49,266 nt of DNA from positions 1 through 49,266 of IMG/VR virus record IMGVR_UViG_2710723508_000002, one strand, 5' to 3'. This DNA is from a virus. How positions within the stretch are numbered: the stretch's first letter is position 1; each line of letters begins with the position of its first letter. Both the position numbers and the translations under genes were made by a program. A model generated the notes under the pieces. That model was not told the DNA's origin. It saw only the letters and a list, made by a program, of their open reading frames with translations, and did no database searches. Shown one piece after another: positions 1 through 49,266 of this stretch.

Positions 1-90
1 TGAGAAATTGCAACGTCATAGTCGTTGTTTGAACGCTTCAAAACTAGCTTAAACTGCTCTGCCAGTGACTTGTTTTTGTTAGTTTCGATA
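1..90. repeat. Terminal direct repeat copy A, identical to 49177-49266. Interpreted as a circular-assembly overlap.
   Basis: Read directly. The string tgagaaattgcaacgtcatagtcg...tttgttagtttcgata is present at both window ends, 90/90 identical. Confidence 0.97.
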
Positions 91-3000
91 AAAGAAACAA
101 CGTCTTCTTTAGTCACAAACTTAACTACCTCACGTTTTTGTGAACCCTCAACACGGGCTTTGATTTTCTCAGCCTGTCCCTCTTTGACTTCGATACCTAC
201 AGCTTTACGGCCGGACTTTACCGCTTCATCAAGTGTTACACCAGAACCAGCAAACGGGTCGAGTACCACATCGCCTTCGTTGGTCGTCATTTCGATCATC
301 TTCTTGAGCATCTGTGCTGGTTTCTCAGTCTGGTAGCCCTTCGGTCGAACCAGCTTAAAATCAAGTCCCTCAATTTGCTTGTCTGTTTTGCCGCTTTGAG
401 TGAACACCAAGATACCTTCTGGCTGTGCTACCTTTCCGTTTGGAGATGTCACTGGAGAACCATCAGCAAAAGTCTTCTGGTATTCTCCACGACCAACTGG
501 AATAAACCCTTTTGTAGTGAAGAGGTCATTGTACTTTTGCATTTTAGCCAAGCCTGATTTGGCTTGAGAGAACATGTGGATGACTGGTGAGTTCTTGTTG
601 CGCAGAATCTTTTTGACTGCAGTAAGTACCTTGTCGAATTGATTGATTGAAATGAGGTCGTATTTAACACCACGATTTCCACCCTTTACAGCTGGAGTGT
701 CATATGGGATATCAAGAAAAACCATGTCAGCCTTGAAACCTTCCTTGGCGAGTCGAGGTAGCGTAGATACAGCGTCTCCAGGGATGATGACTGCAACATC
801 TTTACCATCACGCTTGACGGTGTACACACCACTATCGACACGTTCAAATTCTCCATCTTTTGCACCCATACCAAGAATACGGCGCACGTTTGGCACCAGG
901 ATATTTGTTTCCTCAGCAATTTCTTTAATTGAAGCCTTACCCTTTTTGGCCACAACTTCCTTAACTTTGTCTTTTTGAGTCTCTGGTTTAGATGCAACTG
1001 CAGTGCCTTTTTTTTGGCTTTGGATAAACTCAACGGCCTTCTTCCTCGTGCTAAATGTGCCGAGTATGATATTTTTTCCATCCTTACTTTCACGCACGAC
1101 AAAACCCATCTCCTTGTCTTCTTTGATTGAGTACTTTTTATCCTTTTTGGTAGTAGTTTTCTTCGGCTCAACTTTGGTCGGTTCGGCTGACTTCGGCTCA
1201 CTTTTCGGAGTTTTTGGCGCGATACGGGCAGCGTTCTGTGCCACCATCTGACGCACTGTAGTGCCACCAGAACGGCGTACACCCCCTTCACTGGTAAGTT
1301 GGTCACTTACGCCATCAACGACGCTCTGACGCTGTTCTGGGGTTAAATCCGGGTAGTCTTTGGCCACTAGCTGTTCAATCGAACTGCGGGTTTGGTTTGA
1401 CGACTCTACAAGCTCACTATCAAAGTTGGTCTTGGAGATACCAGACTCCTCAGTCAAATCATCAATTTTTTGCTGCAAAGTTGCTTTTTGCGCTGGATCA
1501 GTAGCAGCCTCAAGTTCAATCTTGAGCTGTTCAATTTGAGCCATCATTTCTGACTGGCCTTTTTCAAACGTCTCGTTCATTTCATTGAACTGGTCTTGGA
1601 GGTCGGCAGCAGTACGGTCAGCAAAATCTAGTGCCGTGGTTGTATCAGTTTGGCCACTAACAATGTTCTCAACCAGGGTACTGGCTTCTTGTATTCCAAG
1701 CCCTTTGTTACCCAATCCAAGTACAATCTCCTCCGCACTTTTACCATTTTGAAGGTCAGCAGTAATCTGGGGTATTAATTCTTCTAACTCAGCTTCTTTT
1801 TTTGTGTTATTAAGCTGGTCTTGATATTTGCTGTCTACAGCGGCGGCGGCGGCTTCAACAACAGCGGGACTAGTTTTGGCCAATTGTTCAACGATATCAA
1901 CCTTCTCTTCCGCTGTCGTGCTGTCGGAGATTTGATTCTTTTGCTCGGGAGGTAGGTTTTCAACTATCTGATTTATATAATCCTCCTCTGCTTCCTTCTT
2001 CTCTTTTGGTGATGTTGCAAATCCCACTCCTTGGAAAGCTAATCCTCCAATCACACCCAATATAAACGACTGTTGGGCTTCATTTCCAAACATGTCAAAA
2101 TTCTCATCCTCTGCTTTTTTCTGTAAGTAAAGCTGGTAGACTTCCTCCCCACCCTCAGTTGTTGCACCAACTGCGCTGGTGACTGTCCCGTATATCAACT
2201 TGCTCAAAAATGAGCTATCTTTACCTAGTACATTTTTGAACGGGGTAATAGCAAGAGCCAACTGGACAGCATCCAGACCAACAAGTTTCATATTACCCTC
2301 AAAGACCTCTTGAGCAGATGTCATAGCCTCCTCCTCACTCGCGCCTTTCTCCAACATCGCTGTGTATGTATCACCAGCTTCGGATGCAGATTCTATTGGT
2401 CGCATCAGCGCAGAACCAGCCATTGAGCCGGTAACTACTCTCAAAAGAGTAGGGGCTGTTCCCATAACAGCTCCACCTATACCAAGTCCAGGCAAAGCCA
2501 AGGCGACTGATGGTACTAATGTTTGAGGTACATTAGTGAGCCAAAATTCTTTGTAACGCAGTGCTTCTATGGGGTCATCGGCCAGGATAGTTCGTATGGC
2601 TTCCGAGTCTTTTGTGGCTAACTTTTCAGCCATTCCCTCTCCACCCTTCGTCATAAATTCTCCAGCTTTCGTGTAATACTTCCATAACCCAGCATCATCA
2701 TTTGATTTCCCCAAAAATGATAGGGCTTTACCGAACATGTTTACAGTATCCCCTATACCCCGGTTGGCAGAAGCTAAGACCTCGTTTACATCGTGGGAGT
2801 ATTGCTTAAGTAATCCTCTTTTTGTACCTAGTTGTTCTTTAGCAGATTTTAGTTGTTCCGATTGATAGTTAGCCTGTTGGAGCTCTTCTTGAAAATCAGC
2901 AGTCTCTGGTTTTATTCCAAGTAATTTATCAGTCGCACCGAAGGAGTACTGCGTTGACCTCAGCGGAGCAGCCGCGGGGGTAGGTTTAGGAGCTGGCTTT

Positions 3001-3143
3001 AGAGTGCCGCCACTAGCTACGTTCATAGACGCCAAACGCTGCCTAGCCGTTACCGTGGCAGCAGCTGGAGTCGCTGGAGCAGAAGGCGCTGGAGCGTTCT
3101 TACCTGTCTTCATTTTGTTTAGAAGGTCGCGTGCTGTTGACAT
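1..3143 (-). CDS. Giant polyvalent protein, N-terminal part (codons 1-1047 of about 3345). It runs off the left edge and continues at 49176.
   Basis: ATG at 3143, 3 nt after the TAA of the upstream gene. My manual translation is open all the way to base 1. The ORF track shows no ORF of 60 aa or more in 1307-3146, as expected for an ORF with no stop inside the window. The frame (codon starts = 2 mod 3) matches the 42282-49217 ORF across the 90-bp overlap. The product starts MSTARDLLNKMKTGKN and contains Gly-rich hydrophobic segments (LALPGLGIGGAVMG, ILGVIGGLAFQGVGF). Confidence 0.85.
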   Translation of the reverse strand, partial: MSTARDLLNKMKTGKNAPAPSAPATPAAATVTARQRLASMNVASGGTLKPAPKPTPAAAPLRSTQYSFGATDKLLGIKPETADFQEELQQANYQSEQLKSAKEQLGTKRGLLKQYSHDVNEVLASANRGIGDTVNMFGKALSFLGKSNDDAGLWKYYTKAGEFMTKGGEGMAEKLATKDSEAIRTILADDPIEALRYKEFWLTNVPQTLVPSVALALPGLGIGGAVMGTAPTLLRVVTGSMAGSALMRPIESASEAGDTYTAMLEKGASEEEAMTSAQEVFEGNMKLVGLDAVQLALAITPFKNVLGKDSSFLSKLIYGTVTSAVGATTEGGEEVYQLYLQKKAEDENFDMFGNEAQQSFILGVIGGLAFQGVGFATSPKEKKEAEEDYINQIVENLPPEQKNQISDSTTAEEKVDIVEQLAKTSPAVVEAAAAAVDSKYQDQLNNTKKEAELEELIPQITADLQNGKSAEEIVLGLGNKGLGIQEASTLVENIVSGQTDTTTALDFADRTAADLQDQFNEMNETFEKGQSEMMAQIEQLKIELEAATDPAQKATLQQKIDDLTEESGISKTNFDSELVESSNQTRSSIEQLVAKDYPDLTPEQRQSVVDGVSDQLTSEGGVRRSGGTTVRQMVAQNAARIAPKTPKSEPKSAEPTKVEPKKTTTKKDKKYSIKEDKEMGFVVRESKDGKNIILGTFSTRKKAVEFIQSQKKGTAVASKPETQKDKVKEVVAKKGKASIKEIAEETNILVPNVRRILGMGAKDGEFERVDSGVYTVKRDGKDVAVIIPGDAVSTLPRLAKEGFKADMVFLDIPYDTPAVKGGNRGVKYDLISINQFDKVLTAVKKILRNKNSPVIHMFSQAKSGLAKMQKYNDLFTTKGFIPVGRGEYQKTFADGSPVTSPNGKVAQPEGILVFTQSGKTDKQIEGLDFKLVRPKGYQTEKPAQMLKKMIEMTTNEGDVVLDPFAGSGVTLDEAVKSGRKAVGIEVKEGQAEKIKARVEGSQKREVVKFVTKEDVVSFIETNKNKSLAEQFKLVLKRSNNDYDVAIS
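160..790 (-). other. Beta-class (N6A/N4C, PF01555-like) DNA methyltransferase domain embedded in the giant ORF.
   Basis: Translated motifs are DMVFLDIPYD (a variant of motif IV D/SPPY, around nt 694-720) followed by YQTEKPAQMLKKMI and VVLDPFAGSGVT (motif I FxGxG, around nt 240-270). The order IV then I is typical of the beta class. Confidence 0.8.
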
Positions 3144-3146
3144 AGT

Positions 3147-4556
3147 TTATAGTCCTCTGAGTGCATTAATTTCTGCTTGAGTAAGTTTGTAATCCTTAAT
3201 TCTTTCTGAATCTGTATTAATCAGGTAGCCGTATTCAGCTATAAAATCTTTTCTTGAAATTCCTTTTTGTTTAGCCACTGCGAGTGACTCGGCAAATATC
3301 TCAGGGTTTGCATATCCGTCATCTCCAATCACTGGATTGCCGTCATCGTTAGCGGATTCAAAAACTGAATTGAACTCAGCCCATGCGTTATCTTCATCGT
3401 CGCCACCTCCAGCTTGTAATCTATCCTCGGTTCGATTGCGGTTGTACATTTGGTTTTCAATGTTAGCAATTTCAGTCTCGGTTTTTTTAGTCTTCAGTGC
3501 CGCGTCTCTCTTTTCACTAATAGACGTTTGTATTGAACTATAAATATCGTAATAGTCAGTATCAGTAAACATTCCTCCAGAATCACGAATAATTTTCTTG
3601 ACAATTTTATCCATGTCTTCTGGTGTTTTAGCCTCCTCAAAGTCATCCATGTACGTCAAAGCAGCTCGTTTTAGTGCTTTGTCCACTGCTTCTAAGCGTT
3701 TTGTTTCCTTTTCCTCACGCGCTTTTTCGGTAATTTCAAACCTAGTCTGTACTTCTTTTAATAAAAAGTCCACACGTTCTCGCATTTGTTCTTCAACTTT
3801 TCGTAAATCTTCTACCGAATCACGCATTGCTCCAACACGACCTTCTTGGCGTGCTGCTTTTGCTTTGGCAATTAAACTAGTGCGTTCGTTTTCAAGTTTA
3901 GAAATCTCATTTGCATTAGATTGCTCTTGTTTTGAAATTCCCTTAGTGAATTCGAGTGGAACATAACCGCCAAGGTTTTGAACCCCATACGCTTTAACTC
4001 TACCAAGGTCTACTTGGTTTATTTTTACTTGACTATCTAGTAGTTTTTCGTAAGTTGATTCAATATTAGTTACGGTAGATTTATAGGTAGCATCAATAGC
4101 CGCCAAGGTTTTCGGTAAAAGGCGGTCAATTTTCTTTTTTTCTTCGTCGTACCATTGCTGTTCTTTTTTGGTTTCGTCTTCACGATTCTTCAAATAAGCA
4201 TCGTATACAGCGTCACCACTACCATCAGAGGTAGTAGTTGTAGTGGTGGTTGTGTCAGAACCAGTAGGTGTATCTTTCTTTTCGTTAAGTCCAGTGTCTG
4301 GGATGTCTTCCGTAGGTGTCTCTCGATCAGTGATATCGCTTGAGAGACTATTATATTCCCCTACACGGTCTTCTGACGAGATAACTGGAGAACCTACTTG
4401 AATTCTGTCTACAGTGCCTGTAGGGGTCAAAATACCAGCACCAGGAATCATGTCCCCCTCACGAATACCCTGAGCACTAAGGTCATTAATTTGTGTCTCA
4501 GTGAAAGGACTTTCAGTTGTCCCCCTTCCGCTGCGGTCGTCTTTTTTTGGTGGCAT
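3147..4556 (-). CDS. Coiled-coil virion-associated protein of unknown function, with an acidic, poly-Thr N-terminal region.
   Basis: 469-aa ORF with ATG start, packed 1 nt from its neighbours. It has a T8 tract and long E/K-rich heptad-like stretches. It lies between the fibre gene and the giant ORF. Confidence 0.7.
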   Translation of the reverse strand: MPPKKDDRSGRGTTESPFTETQINDLSAQGIREGDMIPGAGILTPTGTVDRIQVGSPVISSEDRVGEYNSLSSDITDRETPTEDIPDTGLNEKKDTPTGSDTTTTTTTTSDGSGDAVYDAYLKNREDETKKEQQWYDEEKKKIDRLLPKTLAAIDATYKSTVTNIESTYEKLLDSQVKINQVDLGRVKAYGVQNLGGYVPLEFTKGISKQEQSNANEISKLENERTSLIAKAKAARQEGRVGAMRDSVEDLRKVEEQMRERVDFLLKEVQTRFEITEKAREEKETKRLEAVDKALKRAALTYMDDFEEAKTPEDMDKIVKKIIRDSGGMFTDTDYYDIYSSIQTSISEKRDAALKTKKTETEIANIENQMYNRNRTEDRLQAGGGDDEDNAWAEFNSVFESANDDGNPVIGDDGYANPEIFAESLAVAKQKGISRKDFIAEYGYLINTDSERIKDYKLTQAEINALRGL

Positions 4557-4557
4557 A

Positions 4558-6039
4558 TTAATATTTGACTATATAGGTTAAGGCCAAGAACGGTGGCATG
4601 TTGTTGTGGGGGGTGTCAGAGCCGACTGAACCTGTATTTCCAGCACTACCAATACCTCCAGAAGTACCACCTCCGCCACTTGTCTGACTTTCGGCGGAGT
4701 GTACATGACTTGCCAATTCTTCTGTTTGAATAGTGTGACTTTCTTCTCCCCCTTCTGCTGCTAGCGCACGGTCAGTAAGCGTGAGGGTAAGGGTGTGGGT
4801 ACCACCACCAGCGGCTGCGGTAATGTTTACAGCGGTTCCATCGTCTGCATTAGCGCGTGAGGTAGCAAGTTTAATTGTTGTGTCAGAAACATAAATGACG
4901 TAGTAGGTAGTGGCTGAAAGTCCGGTTGGTAGTGCTCCTCCAGAGTTTGTGAGAGCAACGGCTTGACCTGTATACAGAAATTGGTTTGAAGGCACTGTAA
5001 TAACATCAGTACCTGTATTGACATCAGCATCAAGAAAGTCAAAGGTCTTAACCTTTTGCCCGACTCCAATGATGACTGACCCTCTTATATCAGGAACCTT
5101 GAATTCAGTATGGAAATAATGAGTACTTGAGCCAGTGTCTGTGATATCCACCGCTGAGCCTCCAGCAGTCTCAGAGACTTTGAAGGTATTGGTGGTCGCG
5201 TCTCGAACATAATAGGCAGTATTCAAAGACAATCCAGCTGGGAGTGTACCGAGAGTACTAAAGAAAAGCATGTCACCGTCGCTCAGCCCGTGCGCAGTAG
5301 CTGTAATGATATCTGTGACAGCGGCGGTAAATGTGGACCCTGCGTTATACCCATATCTACCCTTAGCAATTAAAGCCAACGCTGAGTAAGTGTCATTGGC
5401 ATAAGCTGTACCATCACAAAGCAAGAACCCAGTCGGAGCGGTATCACCCATGTACGGTAAAGGAATACCAACCATTGCGTCGAGGAAAGTCTTTTGATTA
5501 GCACTAGGTAACCTAGTTGCATATTTTGAAGCTCCCAATTTAGCTGGTGTGACAACTAGAGGGGCAGAAGTATCACCACTGCCATCTGCGGCATCTGCGT
5601 CAACCTCAGCGGTTGTGGCTACTTCACTAATACCTTTTATTGAGGTAGTTGCGTCTGGCGCTCCAGCAATAGCCAATGCATCAGCATAAGCTTTAGTAAT
5701 TTGGTATACCGTGTATGGGTCATTACCGCAAACAACCTCAGCCCCAGAGCCAAAGTCTTCACCGATAGCACTGCCTGTATACGGGTATTTAGCTGCAATA
5801 TCACGGCCGTTGGTGGCGACGTCGAGTGTGGCCGAACCATCGTCATTTTGAGTCAAATTATCACATATAACCATTTCGACAGTAGAGCCTTGACGAACTG
5901 TTACAACAAACAAGTTGTCAAAATCAGCAATGACCAAGGCATTTCCTTTATGGTCAACAAATTCTTTAACAGTGAAGCTGGTGTCAGTAGAACTGAAAGG
6001 AGAGAGTGTGGATGTTTTGCGAACTTTTATGATTTCCAT
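4558..6039 (-). CDS. Tail fibre / receptor-binding protein with a phage tail-collar domain.
   Basis: Collar-domain signatures are present: GIPLPYMGDTAPTGFLLCDGTAY..YSALALI, FKVPDIRGSVIIGVG and the C-terminal HNNMPPFLALTYIVKY. Confidence 0.85.
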   Translation of the reverse strand: MEIIKVRKTSTLSPFSSTDTSFTVKEFVDHKGNALVIADFDNLFVVTVRQGSTVEMVICDNLTQNDDGSATLDVATNGRDIAAKYPYTGSAIGEDFGSGAEVVCGNDPYTVYQITKAYADALAIAGAPDATTSIKGISEVATTAEVDADAADGSGDTSAPLVVTPAKLGASKYATRLPSANQKTFLDAMVGIPLPYMGDTAPTGFLLCDGTAYANDTYSALALIAKGRYGYNAGSTFTAAVTDIITATAHGLSDGDMLFFSTLGTLPAGLSLNTAYYVRDATTNTFKVSETAGGSAVDITDTGSSTHYFHTEFKVPDIRGSVIIGVGQKVKTFDFLDADVNTGTDVITVPSNQFLYTGQAVALTNSGGALPTGLSATTYYVIYVSDTTIKLATSRANADDGTAVNITAAAGGGTHTLTLTLTDRALAAEGGEESHTIQTEELASHVHSAESQTSGGGGTSGGIGSAGNTGSVGSDTPHNNMPPFLALTYIVKY

Positions 6040-6066
6040 ATAGTTATTTTAACACTTATTAAATGA

Positions 6067-7881
6067 CTATTCCCTATTAATAAACAAGTCAGGGTCAAGA
6101 AGGTCGTCAGAATCTTCTTCATTAATCATCCAGGCCAAAACCTGAAATTCTGCGTCGCTACCGGTGATATTCAAAACGGGACGGAAATCGAACCAGGAAA
6201 CCATCTCTTGCTGATCGAACAAGAAAAATCCCTTGAGAGGGTTCTCAGGCACATCATCAACACCTGCAAAACTGTGTGAAGCAAAGGGATTTGCACCAAA
6301 ACTGACGTCAGTAGACACGTCATACGTTTTGATGTTCTTGACCTTAAACTGCGCCGGTTTTAGATGTTCAGCCCCAAATTCTTCGTATTGGTACTCCATA
6401 TCACAGACAGCCGTGACTGTACCGCGGCCATGTATACCAAACTTATCATGCTTCTTTGGAGTGAAGTTTTGTTTGTCGCTACCATGTGTAAAACCAAAGG
6501 CAATAGTGGAGGCAATCTGGCCATCTAGGTCATTTCGTCCAGAAAATAATTCAAACGTTTCATTGCGCGAGTTACTGTGGCCGTAGCGCAGACCATCAAT
6601 AATACTCATACAGCTCATGCCTATTTCCTGAGGCGGCATGTATTCTCCTTCAATAATATCTAACATTAGCGTGACCCCTTCCCCCGCAGAGATGACAAAA
6701 ACATACCGTTGGTGGTAGTAGATACGGATATCCTCAAGCTCTAAGCGGTCAAGTAGTCCGTCAATCTGGTCTGAAATAAGCTCAATGTCATCAATACCAA
6801 GTACTTCAAGGGTGATGATGCGACGCAAACGCTTGTCTTGCGCCATAAATACTACGTCTCCCTTCTGAATTGCCACCGCAAAAGGCTTGGCTCCAATAGA
6901 TTCAGCTGCTTCAAACTTCTCTACGGTAGTCCAGAATCCGTAGGCATTTTCTTCAATCGCCTTAGTAATTTTGTACCAGTCATCAACAGTAGAAATCCAC
7001 AAAATGCCCTTACGTTCAATCATGGCGGTGTAGTTACCATCTAGGTCTAAAAGCCCCGCTGTGACGGCTGTAGTGGTCACTGGGACGGTAAAATCGAGCG
7101 GTTCAATAGCATCTGAGTAGTAGATACGTCCTGACTCTAGACTTGCAACATAAAGCTGGTTTTTAGAAGAATAAACGTCATCCTTTTCAATACCTGTCAA
7201 GATGTCAGTGTGTTTTACAACTGACGCCATCAGTAAGTCTCCAGCGGCTTGAACCGGAGAAGGTGTACTTCCTAGAGTGAGACTGTCATTGCTAGAGAGT
7301 GCGTCTTCGTGTGTATATTCAGTGTAGTCATCTGGAACACCATTTGCATCGAGTGAGACAATTTGCACGTTCTGTGGTGTGGTGTCGCCTGGGTCAAAGC
7401 CTAACTGCAGCAATGTCTTAGTGTCTGAAATTCTCACTAATCCTCCAGCGTCACCCCCTTGAATTGCAGCAATGGTTCCAATCGCTCCGTTCCATTCGTA
7501 CACAGCATCAGAGCCGTCTACCATATAAAGCCGACTCTTAATAATTGCACCGTTAGTGTCAATCCAAGAAGTGAAACGGACGCGGGTAGTGTCCGCACTA
7601 AACCCGGCATAGAGAGTGATCCATTTGCCATTCCACTTCACCTGCAGAGTAGTACCCCAAACCCGGAGAGCCTTAGCTCCTCCCGGGGCTTTCTTCCAAA
7701 CAAACTCGCTATGAACTTTAGTATTCTCAGTATGGGCTGTTCCGTCGTTCTTGATACCAAGACGAGTAATAATCTTACCCTTGTAGGTAAGACAGTTTTT
7801 ACTCGGGTACGCCAAATAGTTTGGTGGAATTGTGAGGATGTCTTGCCCCTCTCGATACCCTTTAAAGTTTTGAATTATCAT
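6067..7881 (-). CDS. Large virion (tail/nozzle-like) structural protein.
   Basis: 604-aa ORF in the tail module, translationally packed against its neighbours. I recognise no motif. Confidence 0.6.
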   Translation of the reverse strand: MIIQNFKGYREGQDILTIPPNYLAYPSKNCLTYKGKIITRLGIKNDGTAHTENTKVHSEFVWKKAPGGAKALRVWGTTLQVKWNGKWITLYAGFSADTTRVRFTSWIDTNGAIIKSRLYMVDGSDAVYEWNGAIGTIAAIQGGDAGGLVRISDTKTLLQLGFDPGDTTPQNVQIVSLDANGVPDDYTEYTHEDALSSNDSLTLGSTPSPVQAAGDLLMASVVKHTDILTGIEKDDVYSSKNQLYVASLESGRIYYSDAIEPLDFTVPVTTTAVTAGLLDLDGNYTAMIERKGILWISTVDDWYKITKAIEENAYGFWTTVEKFEAAESIGAKPFAVAIQKGDVVFMAQDKRLRRIITLEVLGIDDIELISDQIDGLLDRLELEDIRIYYHQRYVFVISAGEGVTLMLDIIEGEYMPPQEIGMSCMSIIDGLRYGHSNSRNETFELFSGRNDLDGQIASTIAFGFTHGSDKQNFTPKKHDKFGIHGRGTVTAVCDMEYQYEEFGAEHLKPAQFKVKNIKTYDVSTDVSFGANPFASHSFAGVDDVPENPLKGFFLFDQQEMVSWFDFRPVLNITGSDAEFQVLAWMINEEDSDDLLDPDLFINRE

Positions 7882-35854: not shown

Positions 35855-36772
35855 CTACGGCTTCTGGTTTGAAGTGTCAAGGCGAGGTGTAGTATAACTT
35901 GTGGATAGTAATGTTTCCCTAATTGCAGCAAATATCTCCATGGCCACTTGCGGAACTATTGAATTGCCGCACGCCTTTAATCTTTCTTTGCGGTACTGCG
36001 CCGCCGTGATTTTGTTGGTTCGCACGCCACGAACGGTATATCCGTCCAACCTTCGGGGTAACCCATTATGTATTCCGTGAATGCAGGTTGCAGCTGCAAC
36101 CTCTTGCCAGTTTTTGTCCCAATCTCCGTACCTAATCTTTCGGTCTTCTTCCCGTTTTTCTGGTTCTGGTAACCCATAAAGTTTCTTGCTTCCAAGGTTT
36201 GCAATAATCCAGACTCTATCCCTTCTATGCAGCGCTCCAACGGCCACAGCTGGAATAATAAGCGGCTGGACTTCGTAACCTTCTCTTTCCAAATCAGTGC
36301 ACGTCTTTTCGAGAACCACACCTTCGTCCCAATCAACCAAGCCACGCACATTTTCAGCGATGACCCATTCAGGTCTGAGATTTTGTATGACAGTAAACAT
36401 TTCAGGCCACTTGTAGCGGTCGTCTGCCGTTCCTGCTCTTCGTCCAGCTCGACTGAAAGGCTGGCATGGGAAACCTCCGGTGAGAATAGTGAGTGTTTGT
36501 GTTTCGTCGCTCCGTTCTCTACCGCACTGTCCAAGGTGTCCCTGGGCTTTGTTTGACTGCCCCCCTTCCAATCCCTGGTGCTGGGTGTCGGTAACAAGGT
36601 CAGCGATGTCGCCGTAGAAGGTTCCTTCCGGCCAGTGCTTCTTGAGGACTGCTGTTGGGAACGCTTCCCATTCACAGAAAGTGTGTTTGATTTCTTGGTC
36701 ATGAAAAATAGTGTCTAGGGCTAATGAGAATCCACCAATACCAGCAAATAAATCATAGTGAATAATTTTCAT
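35855..36772 (-). CDS. dcm: DNA (cytosine-5) methyltransferase.
   Basis: Motif I DLFAGIGGFSLAL, motif IV GGFPCQPFSRAG, motif VI ENVRGL, RRDRVWIIA, and motif X GNSIVPQVA. I prefer the ATG at 36772 (MKIIHYDLF) over the track's alternative start at 36898. Confidence 0.9.
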   Translation of the reverse strand: MKIIHYDLFAGIGGFSLALDTIFHDQEIKHTFCEWEAFPTAVLKKHWPEGTFYGDIADLVTDTQHQGLEGGQSNKAQGHLGQCGRERSDETQTLTILTGGFPCQPFSRAGRRAGTADDRYKWPEMFTVIQNLRPEWVIAENVRGLVDWDEGVVLEKTCTDLEREGYEVQPLIIPAVAVGALHRRDRVWIIANLGSKKLYGLPEPEKREEDRKIRYGDWDKNWQEVAAATCIHGIHNGLPRRLDGYTVRGVRTNKITAAQYRKERLKACGNSIVPQVAMEIFAAIRETLLSTSYTTPRLDTSNQKP

Positions 36773-36942
36773 AGAAACTGACCAAGTACAATCCAGGTAA
36801 TAGCCACAGCTACGACCATGACCGCCTTCTGCTTCCAGCTGAGAGATTTCTGTGGTGGTTTGTAGTCTGGGCTCTTTGGACACCAGTAGACGTGGCAAAT
36901 CGCTTCACAGCATTCATTTTGTACACAGTAACGTTTTTGCAT
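36769..36942 (-). CDS. 57-aa Cys-rich protein with a C-terminal TM helix, missed by the ORF track.
   Basis: MQKRYCVQNECCEAICHVYWCPKSPDY...AVMVVAVAITWIVLGQFL. The ATG lies 1 nt after the upstream stop. Its stop overlaps the methyltransferase start as ATGA. Confidence 0.5.
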   Translation of the reverse strand: MQKRYCVQNECCEAICHVYWCPKSPDYKPPQKSLSWKQKAVMVVAVAITWIVLGQFL

Positions 36943-42281: not shown

Positions 42282-45200
42282 TTATATACTCTCGTAATAT
42301 GCTTTTGGTACAACTTTCCACTCCGAGTATGCACGTCGTGCAAACTCCTTGTCCCCTTGAATCACTGCGTTTCGATCAGCGTCGTCTTCGGCTTCGGCCA
42401 AAAGTGCTATTTTTTCTCGCTCTTCTGGGGTTGCAAATGAAATACTACGCAATTCTTTTCGAAGTTGGTCACTGAAAAGTGGTGTAGCAATACCAAACAT
42501 AGACATACTTACGTCGTACTTGTCAAGTGCCTGACTTGGTTCTGGCAGTCTTGCGACCACCGCCTTTACCACGTTGTTGTCCTTTCCTTCGAGAGCAGCA
42601 TTGACGATTGGGTCGTCATATCCAAACTTTTGTCGGATAGAAACTTCCTTAATAATCTCAGCTTTTTTGTCTGCTTTGTACTGAGCATCTCCTTCGACGT
42701 AGTCCTTTCCGTACACCTCAATCGCCATCTCGTTTATTTGTTCAGCTGTGATTTCACCATCGCCCTGTATTTGTGATTGCAACATCTCGGTTCGCTTTTC
42801 AGCGTTGGTGCGGTCGTCGTAGGCAATATCAAGATTACGTCCGATACTACCAAGTCCGGCAATATCTGGGGCGGTGAGGAATTGGTGTAATTGCTGAGTT
42901 CCAGGGAAACCAAGCACCATGAGAGTATTTTTAAGCACGTTGTATACCTCCTTGTTACTGGCTCCGTCCTTAAACAGGTTAGTGACATTCTCCGCAATTT
43001 TGTCAATGGCTTCAATACTAGGGTTGTTGATTCGGAGTCCTTCAAGAGAGCCGTCAAATCCAAGAAGGTACCCTGTTCCAGGAACACGTCCGGCAATAGC
43101 AACGAAGTATCGCTTCCACAGAGTTTGATCCTCGTCGTCTTCATAACCAAAGAGTGAGGAGAGCACCATGTACATGATGATTTCGTACGTTACAGCCATG
43201 CCAATATAACTCAAGTTTCCAGCCCCCTTTAGTAAACCTTTACTAGTCCCGTGCTTCTTAAGCTCCATGATGACACCGTCGTAGCGAGCGTTGTTAAAGG
43301 CATTAAAGATGAAAGAACTAAACGGTAAGAAGAATTTGGCGCTAGAGTTATTGAGGATTTGTGGACGATTCGCGACGTTGTGTGAAGACTGAGACAAAAT
43401 CATTATTTGTTCAGACCGGGCAATCGCTTCACTCTCTGACAGCCCTTGCTTCATATAGCCATTCTTCATCACGTTGAATACGGATGTAGCAACACGTATG
43501 TCAACTGTGCGAATACCGATATAGGCATGTTCACGATACTTCTGCCAGCCACGTGCCCAAGCATTTGGAGAGAAGACACCACGATACATACTTTGCATTT
43601 CAGCAATATCAATCTGGCCACCTTGGCGGTTTTGAAGTTCTTTACTACTAGCAACACTGGCATCTAGTTTCGCTTTATTGAGTGCCAAAGAAATAAGCTC
43701 TGGGAAGACTTTTGCTGCAGCTCTCCAGCCAAGCTCTTTGTGAACGTTCATCATTCCGTCAAACGCACCAGAAATCTGCACCAAAACAGTTGAAATTTTG
43801 TAACCAAGAATCGCTAAAGTGACGTTACCGCGCGCCCAGTCCATGATATTTTGCATCCAACTACGCTGACCACGGCCGTTGGTGGCGACGTCAGTAATGT
43901 ACTGACTCCAGTAATCGAGGGTGACTTTGTCAGCCTTGGCCTTGTATTCTTTTGAGTTCACAAGCGCCTTAATACTCTCAAGCTCTGGCTGTACCTTGGC
44001 GTAGAATACCTGCTTCTTTACCTGAGAAACAAACGTTCTGAAAATGTTGGTATCAAGCACACGGCCGACTTGGTTTGTACGTTCCATCGTGAAGCCTTGC
44101 GCAGTCTTCTTCACATCAAAGTCAAATACGTTTTCTTCAATCGTAAACGACTCCACATTTGAGTCGTAACTTAGTGGGAAATAGTTTTCAATATTCGGGA
44201 ATGGTCGGTTATTGATTGCTTCGTAGGTGGCAGCAATCTGGCCGCGAATATCTTTGAACACAGACTGCATGATTTCTAGCGCCGCTGACTCTTTCTCGGA
44301 GAGTGGTGTCGAAAAGTCCACCTTCTTGGCAGGGTCTTTTACCTGAGTGTTGTAGTAATCAACAAGTGCCTCAGCTTGGCTAGTGGCCTCCTGAGCCATT
44401 GCAGACTGATATGTGATACGAACCATCTCGTCGTCAGTAAACGACTCAGCGACCAATTTTAGGTCTTCTAGGGCATCTTTGATAACAAGGTTGGTTTCAA
44501 GTTCAGCTTCGTTAATAGCCTGGCGAACTGGCTCCACTAGCTGTTTATAGTTTTCGCCTTGGTAATCAGCAGCGCCGTCAATATAAGATGCCATACGAGC
44601 TGGGTCGTAGATTTTGGCAGAGGCTTTATCTGTGCCACGTCGCATACGGTTAATGAATGAGTTTGCATCCTTTCCGGGAACTTGTTTGTTGAATTGGTGG
44701 GTACTAGCGACTAGCTTAGAGATATTCTCAGCGAGTGTCTTCTCGTCTCGCGACTTCATCAACTTTTTCTTAAGCACACCCTGGTCATAGATACGTTCTA
44801 CCTCAGCCACAAGCGCAGTGAGTGTGGCGTCGTCTAATTTACCAATTGGTGTACGAGAAAGTCGCTGTAGGTTTTGAGCTACGTTTTCTGGAATTTCCCC
44901 TTCTTGTTTTGCAAAGAATTCAGCTGTCTCAGTCAGTTTCTTTTGAGTAGCGACGCTCATCGACACCAGGTCAATTGTTTCGTAGAGAGCCATCAAACGC
45001 TCTTGGTAATCCAACGGCAAATACGCACCTGTCTTGGTGGCTTTTTTAACCCGGCGGAAAATAGTTTTGAGGGTGTCAATTTTATCCTTACGTTCTCGCT
45101 TGATACGAGTCTCTTGGCGAATCTGTTGACGGCCAGCTACTGAACCGTCACGATAACCACGCTTCTCGCCCATAGTGACGTAGTACTCCTTGCGCATCAA

Positions 45201-48200
45201 AAACTTCTTGCGCATGTTAAGCCGCCGCTGCAAATCTCGCAGCGCTTTGTTGACAGTCTGACCTTGGCGACGTGAGGCAGCAATATCCTTTCTCAAGGTG
45301 CGCAAACGCTTCTTGGTTTCAGCCAATTCAGTCCGGCGTTCTAGGTAATCGTAGAGTTCCTTGGTAGTTACATCTGTCTCTTTCAAAGCGGCCTCTCCGG
45401 CCTTTGTAAGCGTCTTAGGGGGCTTTTTGGTAGTGAAGCGTGCCACTTTACGCACTTCGGTACTTGCTCCCTTCACAACGGTGGCCAGCATACCCTTAGT
45501 CTCCAGCTTCTGCCCGAGTTCGTCCTTCCATAAATCAGCGTCCTTCTCAAGTTGAGCAAGCTGAGTTGATGCTTGGTTGTGCTGGACAATTAGTTTTTGA
45601 GTATAAGCGTCGTCTGTTTCCTTCTTCTTCAATCGAACCTCATTTGGTGTATTGCGTAGATCCAACACACCTTCTTCAATAAACGATTGGACTAGGCCAG
45701 TGTTCTCCAAGAAAACCATTTGCGCGTTTACATCCTCACCAAACTCCAGCAGGTCGTAGTAATCCTTAATGATGTCTGGGTAGCCCTTAATAAAGTTCTT
45801 AAAAGAGCCATACAGCTTCTTAAGCAGCGCGTAGAATTTGCGGATGATGCCCTTGGCCTCGTAGGTATTCTGTCGGTAGGACTCGAAATTTTTAGCCAAA
45901 TCTTCTTCCACCTTTTCAATCTGTTGAGCATTCATTTTATCCAACTCAAAGAAACTCCAGCCAGACTGCATAGCCTGGGCGCGAAGCAGTTTCTCTCTAG
46001 TGATACCGTTCTTGACCATGATTGGAATACGGTGTGCATTCGCTACTGTGAGGTGGACTACCTCATGGCGGTCAGTATTTTCTACCGCGTCTTTTACAAG
46101 AGCAATCGTGTTGTCTGAGTACAAACCAAAAGCCTCAATGTTGTCTTGGTTTTTTGTGATAGCGTTTTCTTTGATACCAGCAAGAATGACGTCGGCATAC
46201 ACCACATCGAACGAAAGGTTCCACCGGTTGCGAATATCACTCAAAAAGGCAGACCGAGTGACGGTTTGCGAGTTTCTTTTGGACTTATTGGCACTGTCAA
46301 ACTTTGCAAAGTCTGAGATAAACTCCCGGCTCTGGTCAGACGAATTGACGTCGTGGCGCAGCTTATACATTGCCTTGCTAGGACTGTCTTCCACCACAAT
46401 GGCTTCAAAGATTTTATCAAAGCCTTCCATGACCATCTTGACCTCTTGCTCTCCGCGAGCGTATGGGTACACTTCTGCCAAGGTTGTATCTACGTCAGCA
46501 TGCTTTCGTAGACCTACAAGTGCGTTGTTTTCAACGCCAGCCTCCTGCATCTTATTGAAGATATACGACTCAAACATACGAGCCGACATTTCAATGTGAG
46601 TAGAAAAGTATGGCTTACTCTTATTTCCATCAGCTTTTTTAGAACGAGTGTACACGTCAGAAATTCCTACATTTAACATCAAATCTCTAAATGCGTTCTC
46701 TACCTCTTTTCGTTGGTACTTTAGTTTGTCCGACACAAAACCATAGACATCGCCATTGCGACGGCCAAGGTAGTTATCAAAAGCGTGCCACCACTCATGT
46801 GCGATTGAACCAATACCACCCTCTTTGGTTAGGTTGATTACAACAAAGTCTGGCTCATAGTGAGCAATTGCTCCCTTGCGGCCGCGAGAACCAAAAGCAA
46901 AACCTAGTTCGCCGTTAAGGGACAATGATTTGTCTGGCACTCCTAGTGTGTTTGCAAGCTCCTTAAACGCATCATACGCGAGGTTAAGACGCTCTTGACG
47001 CTCTTGTTGAGTCACCCAATTACCAAACTCAACACCTTTGAATCCGAAGGTGTTGCGGAAATCCTCAGCACTAATATCTTTGCCGTCTCGGTATGAACGT
47101 GACGATTCTAGTCCGGCTACACGGAAATTGTTTTCATCAAAACTGACTGACTCCGCAATTGACTTTACGTACTCCTGTAGCTTATCCGGGTCTTTGAGAG
47201 CCTCACGCGCTTCGGCAGCAGACGCAAAGACTTCAAATTCAACAAAGCGGCTACCTTTCTTAAAGGCGGTCATGATTTTAGAGCCTTGACGAAATACGCT
47301 TATGTAGTCTGCAAGGTCAAGTTGTTTCTTCCCGGCTTTTTCTTGTGCCATTTCCCCTTCCATCACCGCGTACACCTCTTCTATATTGGTTCCGTAGCTT
47401 TTATGCTGTCCCTGTTGAGTAGTGTAGTTTTTATTAAGTGTCTTGCCGTTCTTTCGCAGACTGTAAAATGTAACCGGTTCAGTATTTTGACTACTACTTG
47501 ACCTGCCCCTTTGAACAAAAACGGTATACTTCTGCACCTCTGGATTGTTCAAGAAATCAAACTTCTTATGAAGGTTGACGGTCGCACCGATACTGCTAGT
47601 CAGTTCTTTTTCTCCGGCTTTTTCTATCACTTCATTTAGCTTCTCAAATACCCCAGTCGCACCTTCGGTATTTTTATTGATTAGCATTTTACCAGCCACG
47701 TCACGCAAGAATTTTACATCTTTAATCCACTTTTCAGTCTTGAGTCGAGCATACCTACCAGTTGGCTTTTTAGGTAGCTCAGCGCGCATTGTAGCGTACA
47801 AAGAGAGTGCGTTTACATCTACACCAGCCTCAGCTAAAGCTGCAAAGTCAACGGATGGTAAAAGCTTTGCGACCGGCTGCGTCATGATGTCTGAGTCAGA
47901 CAAATCTTTGGTGTACTTCTCAGCAAGTGCTGCAAATTTATCTTTGGCAGCGCCTCCGATTTTTTTACCGACATCAACGTTTTTAACTGCAGTGGTATCT
48001 ACTTTTGGTGGGTTCTTTGACTTATCAGCTTTCTTTGCTGGCTTAGTCACTTTGCTTTTCTCCTCTAGAATTACTTTAGCGTCAGCCATTTGAATTTGCT
48101 CTACATCGAACACTACGTACTCATAAATAGTCTGACCGTTCTCATCTTTACCAAACGCAGAAACGATACCGTCAAAGCCAGCGTCAATCATTTTCTGTTT

Positions 48201-49266
48201 ATTCTCAATGTCGCTGTAAAGTCCGTCCTGTAATTCACCTAGAGTACCCAAATCAATCGCGTCATCTAAGTATTCCAATGCTTCTTTAGGGCTAATAGCT
48301 TTTTCACCAGATAGTAATTCGTATACAAATTCAGCTTGAGACTCTTTCGTGAGAATGCCAGCAAGAGTTAAGTCAAGTGGATTTTTAAGACTAAGCTTTG
48401 CTTTCTTTACTTGTGCAGGACGGTTATCGCCTTGTGGTCGGGTGTCTTCTACGAATTGCTTGGCTCGGGCTTCATCACCAATGAAGAACGTACCAAAACT
48501 GGCATTGTCCCATTGTGTGTTTTCGCCTACACGCTTTGCGTCAAACTTATCGAAGTCAGCAAGTGTACCGTGATACACCACGTCAGGAATTACAATAGCG
48601 TCTTCACTTTTTTTTTCAGTGGACGGTGTGTCGCCGTCTTCGTCAGCGTCGTCAGCTTTTTCTCGACGCATTAAATAGCCGTCTTCGTCAACTTGGTACA
48701 ACTGATATGTAGTATTTCCAGCTTTGAGCTTGCCGTCTTTGTCGATACTTTCAATCACCCAACGCTTGCCGTCGAGTTCGATAATCTCACCAACTTTACC
48801 CAAAGGTTTTGAGCTAGGGAGAACACCATAACCGAGTCCAATAAATGAACCCTCGTAGTTGATAGTGTTATTCATCGGGTCAGCCTTCTTAGCGTCGAGG
48901 TCTGTAGCAAGAATCTTGGGGAACTTTGTTGTTTTATCTAGTTCCGCAACTACGTCTGGCTGGTATTTTTCAGCTACATCTTTTGGAATTAACTTGTTTT
49001 TGTACAAAAACTTAATCACTGAAATGTCAGTAAATATAAGAAATTGTTTAGCTTCTTCTATGCCGTATTTTTCTTCTTGATATTCTCGCCACGCTTTTGC
49101 ACCCTCTAGGGTCATACCCTCAGTTTCAGTGTCTTGGTGAAAAAACTCTTTTTCTTTTTTTAGTAACAGTAAATACTGAGAAATTGCAACGTCATAGTCG
49201 TTGTTTGAACGCTTCAAAACTAGCTTAAACTGCTCTGCCAGTGACTTGTTTTTGTTAGTTTCGATA
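42282..49266 (-). CDS. Giant polyvalent protein, C-terminal part (about 2,300 codons). It is open to the right window edge, and 49177-49266 duplicates 1-90.
   Basis: The track ORF 42282-49217 begins at an internal TTG. The frame stays open upstream to base 49266 and is continuous with 1-3143 after the 90-bp overlap is removed. The combined ORF is 10,038 nt, encoding 3,345 aa. Confidence 0.9.
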   Translation of the reverse strand, partial: IETNKNKSLAEQFKLVLKRSNNDYDVAISQYLLLLKKEKEFFHQDTETEGMTLEGAKAWREYQEEKYGIEEAKQFLIFTDISVIKFLYKNKLIPKDVAEKYQPDVVAELDKTTKFPKILATDLDAKKADPMNNTINYEGSFIGLGYGVLPSSKPLGKVGEIIELDGKRWVIESIDKDGKLKAGNTTYQLYQVDEDGYLMRREKADDADEDGDTPSTEKKSEDAIVIPDVVYHGTLADFDKFDAKRVGENTQWDNASFGTFFIGDEARAKQFVEDTRPQGDNRPAQVKKAKLSLKNPLDLTLAGILTKESQAEFVYELLSGEKAISPKEALEYLDDAIDLGTLGELQDGLYSDIENKQKMIDAGFDGIVSAFGKDENGQTIYEYVVFDVEQIQMADAKVILEEKSKVTKPAKKADKSKNPPKVDTTAVKNVDVGKKIGGAAKDKFAALAEKYTKDLSDSDIMTQPVAKLLPSVDFAALAEAGVDVNALSLYATMRAELPKKPTGRYARLKTEKWIKDVKFLRDVAGKMLINKNTEGATGVFEKLNEVIEKAGEKELTSSIGATVNLHKKFDFLNNPEVQKYTVFVQRGRSSSSQNTEPVTFYSLRKNGKTLNKNYTTQQGQHKSYGTNIEEVYAVMEGEMAQEKAGKKQLDLADYISVFRQGSKIMTAFKKGSRFVEFEVFASAAEAREALKDPDKLQEYVKSIAESVSFDENNFRVAGLESSRSYRDGKDISAEDFRNTFGFKGVEFGNWVTQQERQERLNLAYDAFKELANTLGVPDKSLSLNGELGFAFGSRGRKGAIAHYEPDFVVINLTKEGGIGSIAHEWWHAFDNYLGRRNGDVYGFVSDKLKYQRKEVENAFRDLMLNVGISDVYTRSKKADGNKSKPYFSTHIEMSARMFESYIFNKMQEAGVENNALVGLRKHADVDTTLAEVYPYARGEQEVKMVMEGFDKIFEAIVVEDSPSKAMYKLRHDVNSSDQSREFISDFAKFDSANKSKRNSQTVTRSAFLSDIRNRWNLSFDVVYADVILAGIKENAITKNQDNIEAFGLYSDNTIALVKDAVENTDRHEVVHLTVANAHRIPIMVKNGITREKLLRAQAMQSGWSFFELDKMNAQQIEKVEEDLAKNFESYRQNTYEAKGIIRKFYALLKKLYGSFKNFIKGYPDIIKDYYDLLEFGEDVNAQMVFLENTGLVQSFIEEGVLDLRNTPNEVRLKKKETDDAYTQKLIVQHNQASTQLAQLEKDADLWKDELGQKLETKGMLATVVKGASTEVRKVARFTTKKPPKTLTKAGEAALKETDVTTKELYDYLERRTELAETKKRLRTLRKDIAASRRQGQTVNKALRDLQRRLNMRKKFLMRKEYYVTMGEKRGYRDGSVAGRQQIRQETRIKRERKDKIDTLKTIFRRVKKATKTGAYLPLDYQERLMALYETIDLVSMSVATQKKLTETAEFFAKQEGEIPENVAQNLQRLSRTPIGKLDDATLTALVAEVERIYDQGVLKKKLMKSRDEKTLAENISKLVASTHQFNKQVPGKDANSFINRMRRGTDKASAKIYDPARMASYIDGAADYQGENYKQLVEPVRQAINEAELETNLVIKDALEDLKLVAESFTDDEMVRITYQSAMAQEATSQAEALVDYYNTQVKDPAKKVDFSTPLSEKESAALEIMQSVFKDIRGQIAATYEAINNRPFPNIENYFPLSYDSNVESFTIEENVFDFDVKKTAQGFTMERTNQVGRVLDTNIFRTFVSQVKKQVFYAKVQPELESIKALVNSKEYKAKADKVTLDYWSQYITDVATNGRGQRSWMQNIMDWARGNVTLAILGYKISTVLVQISGAFDGMMNVHKELGWRAAAKVFPELISLALNKAKLDASVASSKELQNRQGGQIDIAEMQSMYRGVFSPNAWARGWQKYREHAYIGIRTVDIRVATSVFNVMKNGYMKQGLSESEAIARSEQIMILSQSSHNVANRPQILNNSSAKFFLPFSSFIFNAFNNARYDGVIMELKKHGTSKGLLKGAGNLSYIGMAVTYEIIMYMVLSSLFGYEDDEDQTLWKRYFVAIAGRVPGTGYLLGFDGSLEGLRINNPSIEAIDKIAENVTNLFKDGASNKEVYNVLKNTLMVLGFPGTQQLHQFLTAPDIAGLGSIGRNLDIAYDDRTNAEKRTEMLQSQIQGDGEITAEQINEMAIEVYGKDYVEGDAQYKADKKAEIIKEVSIRQKFGYDDPIVNAALEGKDNNVVKAVVARLPEPSQALDKYDVSMSMFGIATPLFSDQLRKELRSISFATPEEREKIALLAEAEDDADRNAVIQGDKEFARRAYSEWKVVPKAYYESI
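46548..47075 (-). other. Zincin-like metallopeptidase domain (MPTase-PolyVal type) in the giant ORF.
   Basis: FGFKGVEFGNWVTQQERQ ... AFGSRGRKGAIAHYEP..VINLTKEGGIGSIAHEWWHAFDNYL. The HExxH motif is at nt 46799-46785. Confidence 0.65.
48084..48596 (-). other. ART-like (ADP-ribosyltransferase of polyvalent proteins type) domain in the giant ORF.
   Basis: IPDVVYHGTLADFDKFD ... SFGTFFIGDEARAKQF ... GFDGIVSAF ... YEYVVFDVEQIQ. This matches my recollection of the H-Y-E ART-PolyVal pattern. No search was run. Confidence 0.5.
49177..49266. repeat. Terminal direct repeat copy B, identical to 1-90.
   Basis: Direct comparison of the window ends. Confidence 0.97.

Follow-up and report, generated by a model that had tools for sequence, protein, structure and literature searches.

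In the 49,266-nucleotide viral genome IMGVR_UViG_2710723508_000002 (IMG/VR; positions 1 to 49,266, called the window here, meaning the whole stretch of DNA that was analysed), a gene for a giant protein of 3,345 residues contains, at residues 785–1000, a beta-class DNA methyltransferase domain of the N6-adenine/N4-cytosine (N6A/N4C) kind. Together with a winged helix that precedes it, this domain makes up a cassette, residues 721–1000 (window 144–983, minus strand), which on the sequence comparisons below appears to vary a known anti-restriction strategy in a way that is widespread yet undescribed, being present in more than 100 related giant phage proteins. We lean toward the view that the cassette is an active and probably adenine-specific methyltransferase that enters the cell with the DNA and guards that DNA from restriction.

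The methyltransferase domain and its winged helix

A first-pass annotation of the window had pointed to a methyltransferase domain at positions 160–790, fused inside a giant protein rather than encoded as a separate gene, and this description holds. The strings on which it was based (DMVFLDIPYD, TEKP, VLDPFAGSGVT and a winged-helix segment) are all present in the minus-strand frame that opens at 3143, with DMVFLDIPYD at residues 806–815 and VLDPFAGSGVT at residues 960–970. Positions 160–790 encode residues ~785–995, which is the catalytic domain, and motif IV, at residues 811–814, does lie about 800 residues into the giant open reading frame (ORF).

The comparison with the Pfam profile PF01555 (N6_N4_Mtase) that had been proposed at that stage gave 73.6 bits, well above the gathering threshold of 26.7 (E-value 2.9e-20), and in PHROGs the domain matched phrog_67, "DNA methyltransferase", over residues 786–1021 (E 7e-29). 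Sequence matches in the Protein Data Bank (PDB) include CcrM, TTHA0409, M.RsrI, the rotifer enzyme N4CMT, M1.HpyAVI, M.BceJIV and M.MboIIA, and alignment with CcrM pairs DIPY with its DPPY, TEKP with its TQKP and FAGSG with its FFGVG. The order of the parts is motif IV, target-recognition domain (TRD) and motif I, that is, circular permutation class beta. An AlphaFold2 (AF2) model of residues 715–1030 shows a Rossmann-like methyltransferase fold with a mean predicted local distance difference test score (pLDDT) of 86.6, and Foldseek places this model with CcrM (E 7e-13), M1.HpyAVI, TTHA0409, RsrI and PvuII (E 7e-13 to 1e-9); a search of the ESM Atlas returned generic PF01555 clusters only. The two profiles, the CcrM alignment and the modelled fold thus all bear out the earlier assignment to the beta-class N6A/N4C enzymes, which had been made from the order of motifs IV and I.

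The segment ahead of the catalytic domain had been described as winged-helix-like, and structure prediction agrees. In the AF2 model three helices (9–20, 25–32 and 36–48) are followed by a beta-hairpin (strands 52–56 and 59–62) at a pLDDT of ~90, and the segment folded alone (window 774–1001) reached a pLDDT of 80. Foldseek on this segment found only winged-helix DNA binders (IdeR, IclR, MarR, AspA, Z-alpha and TFE-alpha; TMq 0.6–0.7), with E-values of 4e-3 to 4e-2 that are modest because the segment has only ~60 residues. None of the curated Pfam helix-turn-helix (HTH) families reached its threshold, the best being HTH_24 (E 0.025, 14.6 bits vs 21.9). The helix-turn-helix-like part, KASIKEIAEETNILVPNVRRIL, occupies residues 736–757, and the recognition helix PNVRRILG (in the longer pattern PNVRRILGxGAKxGxFxR) is conserved to the same degree as motifs IV and I. 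A special kinship with the Z-DNA-binding Z-alpha domains was considered and set aside; these neighbours superpose with a root-mean-square deviation of 0.8 Å, yet this is probably generic winged-helix similarity.

Column conservation in the family alignment described below falls off sharply outside residues 721–1000, and within these limits the target-recognition region is moderately conserved. Stand-alone homologs open with MTQK, the counterpart in the alignment of T721-Q-K in the giant, and stop near residue 1000. Since the ends of the solo genes coincide with residues 721 and ~1000, and since the conservation boundaries are sharp, the cassette is self-contained; judged from these alignments, residues 721–1000 are the same unit as the stand-alone phage methyltransferase genes of ~285 residues. 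Separate translation of the cassette from an internal start found no support: at the nearest Met (~669) AAGGAG runs straight into the ATG without a spacer, and the cassette boundary itself has no Met. A further small domain is predicted upstream of the winged helix, at residues ~655–712 (KYSIKEDKEMGFVV...KKAVEFIQ; window 1008–1181, minus strand); it has linkers rich in Lys, Pro and Thr on either side and no Pfam match.

A conserved family, mostly embedded in giant proteins

The family is well delimited: a phmmer search of 1.84 billion cluster representatives, the clusters being drawn at 50% identity, gave 165 proteins at E ≤ 1e-30, and relaxing the limit to E ≤ 1e-10 raised the number only to 224. 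The module from the best 150 of these matches was aligned with the query (151 rows). Motif IV has its Asp and Tyr in every row (151/151), and the tetrad reads DIPY in 111 rows, DPAY in 21, DPPY in 12, DVPY in 3, DLPY in 3 and DIAY in 1. In 149 of the 151 members an acidic residue follows beta-2. No loss of residues that bind S-adenosylmethionine (SAM) was seen in the alignment: FAGSG of the window protein is intact, and FxGxG is nearly invariant among the 151 rows.

The consensus of the beta-class tetrad is (D/N/S)PP(Y/F/W), in which the first residue acts on the amino group and the last stacks on the base (PMC7544214). D811 and Y814 fit this consensus at positions 1 and 4; the canonical Pro-Pro at positions 2 and 3 is interrupted by Ile at position 2, a departure from the consensus that the profile does not forbid. 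Adenine N6 in CcrM is bonded to the side chain of Asp31 and to the main-chain carbonyl of Pro32 (PMC10406627), and since Pro32 gives a main-chain carbonyl only, Ile at that position would keep the chemistry. Dead beta-class paralogs, by comparison, erode the first or last position of the tetrad, for example NALW of MTA9 (PMC7544214). A FastTree tree of the family, whose branch supports are local SH-like values only, separates a 33-row side with the DPPY and DPAY forms from a 116-row side dominated by DIPY, and this pattern indicates that DIPY is a stably inherited derived state. The form DIPY prevails in a large family that keeps the catalytic Asp, the Tyr and the SAM motif; it is thus no sign of decay, and the cassette methyltransferase is very probably active. 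The first-pass annotation had taken DIPY to leave open both the activity of the enzyme and the base that it modifies. The doubt about activity is now largely resolved by the conservation across 151 members, and the caution about the base still applies, adenine being a prediction. The enzyme is probably specific for adenine N6, because its tetrad begins with Asp, as in CcrM and RsrI, and not with Ser, as in the N4C enzyme N4CMT, whose motif IV is SPPY (PMC10406627).

One solo homolog of 285 residues (P0146) has Trp at almost every conserved Gly position, with FAWTWVTW in place of FAGSGVT; this looks like the product of a genome with code 25, where TGA stands for Gly, translated as though TGA stood for Trp.

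Embedding in giant proteins is the norm for this family. Among the 150 best clusters, 113 consist of proteins with at least 1500 residues, in which the median start of the module is residue 748. In 35 of 38 IMG/VR loci the module is part of an open frame that has between 939 and more than 5,000 residues, some of these frames being cut by contig ends; the other 3 are solo. Stand-alone members number about 20 (~285 residues), and 15 of the stand-alone genes have the DIPY form. On viral contigs, two solo copies (L035 and L039) belong to replication modules, where their neighbours include genes for a helicase, a primase, an exonuclease and a DNA polymerase. Solo and fused genes are intermixed on the tree, the starred branches of which require at least 7 switches between the two states.

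The giants themselves, which were picked for comparison by their possession of the module, are mosaic. Residues ~715–1000 of the window protein are common to 111 of the 113 giants at the level of BLAST, and any other segment is found in at most ~20. Identity among giants is 60–75% within the cassette, and the flanks are mostly unalignable, a contrast that points to strong constraint on the cassette. At one extreme, P0016 (3,817 residues) aligns collinearly with the window protein nearly from end to end, and the C-terminal 1,160 residues are 56% identical; at the other, P0007, P0008, P0013 and P0014 have the cassette alone in common with it, at ~70% identity. P0010 has its ADP-ribosyltransferase (ART) domain before the cassette instead of after it.

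A tblastn search of 50,697 GenBank phage records with the cassette found only stand-alone methyltransferases of at most 28% identity, and by this measure the family is carried by no cultured phage. In the GTDB species-representative genomes, the matches listed comprise only weak partial hits to motif I and no family member.

The polyvalent giant and known virion proteins

The window is a complete IMG/VR viral genome of the class with direct terminal repeats, and all of its long ORFs are on the minus strand. Bases 1–90 are identical to 49177–49266, and the reading frame of the giant gene is kept across this duplication. The gene thus appears as two end ORFs, one that runs off the end from 3143 and one that ends at 42282, whose translations overlap by 29 residues; when one copy of the repeat is dropped they form a single minus-strand ORF of 3,345 residues (3143 to 1, then 49176 to 42282). 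An overlap left by the assembly of a circular or permuted genome is a likelier origin of the duplication than a direct terminal repeat that exists physically. A megablast search with 25 kb of the window found no match among GenBank phages.

Table 1. Features of the giant gene, the cassette and the second methyltransferase gene, in window coordinates
Feature	Position	Strand	Evidence
Giant polyvalent-protein gene, 5' part, residues 1–1047	1..3143	-	Open frame from ATG at 3143 to base 3
Giant polyvalent-protein gene, 3' part, residues 1019–3345	42282..49266	-	Pfam ART-PolyVal, LPD5, LPD1; phrog_616 E 2.7e-84
Winged-helix domain, residues 721–778	810..983	-	AF2 H-H-H-beta-beta topology; Foldseek; conservation profile
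Beta-class SAM-dependent amino-methyltransferase domain, residues 785–1000	144..791	-	PF01555; phrog_67; PDB sequence matches; AF2 and Foldseek
Motif IV, D811-I-P-Y814, catalytic tetrad, DPPY variant	702..713	-	Aligned to CcrM DPPY
T939-E-K-P942 motif, counterpart of CcrM TQKP	318..329	-	K in 149/151 family members
Motif I, F964-A-G-S-G968, SAM binding, FxGxG	240..254	-	F 147/151, G 147/151, G 148/151
ART-PolyVal ADP-ribosyltransferase domain, residues ~1245–1414	48078..48587	-	PF18760 E 7.8e-12, 46.6 bits vs 31.2 cut-off
LPD5, zincin, LPD1 core	46401..47477	-	PF18799, PF18796; HEWWH; blastp to phi24B gp47
HExxH motif HEWWH, residue 1841	46785..46799	-	Motif search
HExxH motif HEVVH, residue 2085	46053..46067	-	Motif search
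Stand-alone C5-cytosine DNA methyltransferase gene	35855..36898	-	PF00145 E 2.3e-33; phrog_363

In its one chain the giant combines PF01555 with ART-PolyVal, LPD5, LPD1 and zincin-type motifs (Table 1), and it is the last gene of the tail operon, in the same direction as TerS and TerL. The gene order runs from DnaD-like, C5 methyltransferase, Erf and exonuclease genes through TerS and TerL, head genes, and tail and tail-fibre genes to the giant. In both respects it belongs with the polyvalent proteins (PMC5512222), which also string unrelated enzyme domains and LPD domains on one giant late-gene chain and are predicted as a class to be delivered with the DNA; Iyer et al. 2017 argued from late-gene context that phage polyvalent proteins are packaged and injected, and that zincins may process them (PMC5512222). 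The two HExxH motifs of the window protein are candidate zincin peptidases that could cut the giant polyprotein into modules. Two other loci (L003 and L005) are syntenic with the window (tail, 604-residue protein, fibre, 469-residue protein, giant), and in divergent loci the neighbours of the giant are virion or packaging genes wherever PHROGs recognises them. On one divergent 62-kb contig (L020) the giant ORF with the cassette, from 7151, follows TerL and an ORF of 554 residues that is possibly the portal (region 2676–7154), and so stands not after tail-fibre genes but in a position typical of MuF-like head proteins.

The core of the giant also points to packaging. Residues 1449–2089 of the giant match residues 919–1568 of gp47 from the Stx phage phi24B (2,807–2,811 residues; HM208303 49148–57571) with 30.6% identity over 680 columns (blastp, E 1e-68). 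The two proteins share the LPD5, zincin and LPD1 core and the position of last gene after the tail genes in a podovirus-type late operon; gp47 differs in lacking a methyltransferase and an ART domain, and no similarity to the window protein could be detected in its N- and C-terminal regions. gp47 was found in purified virions by liquid chromatography and tandem mass spectrometry (LC-MS/MS), was not seen in the cryo-electron microscopy (cryo-EM) map, and has been proposed as a capsid-packaged ejection protein (bioRxiv 10.64898/2026.04.10.717836). By analogy, from this core homology and the place in the tail operon, we infer that the window protein is probably packaged and ejected with the DNA. 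A second relative is the 3,421-residue giant of the Pseudoalteromonas phage vB_Pun_Y3 (L002, OR779980.1 24147–37521), residues 2247–3047 of which match the LPD5/LPD1 core of the window protein (E 2e-68). vB_Pun_Y3 is a cultured phage of 48.9 kb that has a separate gene for a 1,027-residue ADP-ribosyltransferase after the giant and lacks the methyltransferase cassette; among cultured phages it offers the closest system in which packaging of this protein class could be tested. The giants of both phi24B and vB_Pun_Y3 do without the methyltransferase, which makes the cassette an accessory insert.

The methyltransferase of polyvalent proteins has been described as mostly monophyletic, gamma-class and EcoKI/TaqI-like, with NPP(Y/F), flanked by LPD36 and a superfamily 2 (SF2) helicase, P1 DarB being the archetype (PMC5512222). 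The window enzyme differs from it in being a beta-class PF01555 protein that has its own winged helix and no helicase. We found no mention of a beta-class plus winged-helix module in Iyer et al. 2017 (PMC5512222), and a search of the literature found no description of such a cassette in polyvalent proteins. The first-pass annotation had drawn an analogy with DarB. It remains apt as a functional concept, in that both are DNA methyltransferase domains in a large virion protein that could shield the incoming genome in cis against restriction; it fails for the family, since DarB has a gamma-class NPPY methyltransferase, LPD36 and an SF2 helicase, none of which occurs here. Pfam searches of the 3,345 residues gave no hit to PF02384, PF07669, Helicase_C, ResIII, SNF2 or LPD36, and a motif scan found no NPP[YFW], no Walker A GxGK[ST] and no DExH. 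Membership in the DarB-type dyad was accordingly rejected for the window protein, which also scored negatively against a dyad profile built from 13 relatives.

Other giants carry both systems. A DarB-type dyad lies downstream of the beta-class cassette in 7–8 of the 12 long relatives scanned and, by profile search, in at least 15 of the 113 giants, always after the cassette; these counts of co-occurring domains, from single-probe BLAST and iterative profiles, are lower bounds, since the giants are very divergent and many end at contig ends. P0005, P0009, P0020 and others (3,800–4,900 residues) have the beta cassette near residues 700–1000 and a dyad of gamma-class Eco57I/N6_Mtase and SNF2 helicase downstream, and P0005 has a weak Zeta-toxin-like hit as well. 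Because cassette and dyad coexist in one chain they are different components and not interchangeable members of one family, and on these comparisons DarB is an analogy of strategy and not the family of the window domain. The closer kin are the orphan beta-class enzymes CcrM, M.RsrI, M1.HpyAVI and M.EcoGII, which share motif order, fold, SAM motif and catalytic Asp and Tyr with the cassette. They have DPPY where it has DIPY, and ParB or C-terminal DNA-binding domains in place of its winged helix, and they differ in addition from most copies of the cassette in that these are embedded in giant proteins.

The same genome encodes a C5-cytosine methyltransferase (Table 1) in its replication/recombination module, separate from the giant protein, so that the phage has two methyltransferases differing in chemistry and expression timing. 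Virion DNA may for this reason carry 5-methylcytosine too, and only an N6-methyladenine or N4-methylcytosine signal would report on the cassette.

Possible roles of the cassette

If the cassette serves to protect incoming DNA, as we are inclined to think, the giant protein would be packed in the capsid and ejected together with the genome, the methyltransferase would possibly be freed by the built-in zincin peptidase and would work as a dimer like other beta-class enzymes, and the phage DNA would be methylated on entry and so shielded from host restriction before any phage gene is expressed. Several points weigh against this scheme. Because the giant is a late protein, cells that produce phage contain its methyltransferase as well, and the enzyme could act in them. 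If injected, it would have to be faster than the restriction enzymes. The obligate dimerisation of beta-class enzymes (PMC7544214) sits uneasily with a domain within a chain of 3,345 residues; either two giant molecules would have to bring their embedded domains together, or the domain would have to be freed. Motif IV lacks the first proline of its consensus. Only the central core ties the giant to phi24B gp47, which has no methyltransferase, and the N-terminal (60–420) and C-terminal (2500–3345) modules have no tblastn match in phages and no PHROG or Pfam match. Finally, phages that differ greatly have a moderately conserved target-recognition region in common, which is unexpected if the enzyme mimics many host restriction-modification (R-M) specificities; it argues for a shared or relaxed specificity over mimicry of single host R-M systems.

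A more specific version of this proposal is possible, and we put it forward only tentatively. The winged-helix and DIPY enzymes would form a distinct, undescribed class of virion-delivered methyltransferases, conserved best among the parts of the mosaic giant ejection proteins that make up more than 100 clusters from uncultured phages. The class would be no duplicate of the DarB-type dyad, both often being present in one chain, and, as its conserved recognition region suggests, it would recognise a shared short or relaxed target, marking the genome in cis while the DNA passes out of or into the capsid.

Alternatively, the producer cell might be the place of action: made late, the methyltransferase would modify progeny genomes ahead of packaging or in the course of it, much as its stand-alone homologs presumably work in replication, and the fusion would serve only to couple its supply to assembly or to tether it near the portal. 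We consider this, the main alternative, unlikely, though with real points in its favour: stand-alone family members sit in replication modules, the giant gene is in a late operon, and a six-frame search of the window genome with PF01555 found the domain of the giant (74.2 bits) and no other PF01555 gene. The repeated switches between solo and fused genes suggest, in addition, that the two forms may substitute for each other; they are compatible with either an injected or a producer-cell enzyme. Action in the producer cell leaves unexplained why the module is embedded in nearly all of the viral loci and in most of the clusters, why it keeps company with ART, zincin and DarB-type dyad domains, which are typical injected effectors, and why it is the most conserved part of the giants.

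It is less probable still that an injected enzyme is aimed at host DNA or RNA, where it would disturb gene expression, replication or the discrimination of self from non-self by defences. Polyvalent proteins do bear host-directed effectors (PMC5512222), and an ART domain lies ~250 residues downstream of the cassette; the beta class includes RNA-active and sequence-nonspecific members, for example the promiscuous M.EcoGII (PMC7544214), and the conservation of the target-recognition region and of the recognition helix across very divergent phages fits a conserved target or low specificity. However, the few enzyme copies in a virion are unlikely to change a whole host chromosome quickly, and the solo homologs in replication modules resemble ordinary self-protecting phage methyltransferases.

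A catalytically dead domain, retained for DNA binding or structure only, for example to anchor the genome end in the capsid, might be suspected from the replaced proline and from the dimerisation requirement of the beta class (PMC7544214). We regard it as very improbable given the invariant Asp and Tyr and the essentially invariant FxGxG across 151 diverged sequences, the canonical DPPY members nested in the same family, and the stand-alone DIPY genes, which would have no reason to persist if inactive. Last, mis-assembly, a missed stop or a frameshift joining a methyltransferase gene to its neighbours might be suspected from a giant ORF that crosses the contig junction, and can be dismissed: the junction is an exact 90-nucleotide duplication with the frame preserved, the methyltransferase lies ~140 nucleotides and more from it with over 2 kb of open frame upstream, and 35 independent viral contigs and 113 protein clusters have the module embedded in this way, a recurrence that excludes an assembly artefact.

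The general picture of polyvalent proteins is unchanged by these findings, which are incremental and not surprising in that respect. The family does show that one proline of DPPY can be replaced over long evolutionary spans (DIPY, DVPY, DLPY, DPAY), and these variants are an aid for annotating amino-methyltransferases and for judging supposedly "dead" ones. Should its specificity prove relaxed, the cassette might find use as a compact enzyme tool as well. A phage has few ways to protect its DNA ahead of any gene expression, and a virion-borne methyltransferase is one of them. To our knowledge P1 DarB is the only studied example, and its mechanism is still not understood. The cassette, plentiful in metagenomic phages (165 clusters at 50% identity) and absent from the GenBank phage records searched, would be a second and much simpler model than DarB, with 280 residues, no helicase, and an existence in nature both as a free gene and as an embedded domain.

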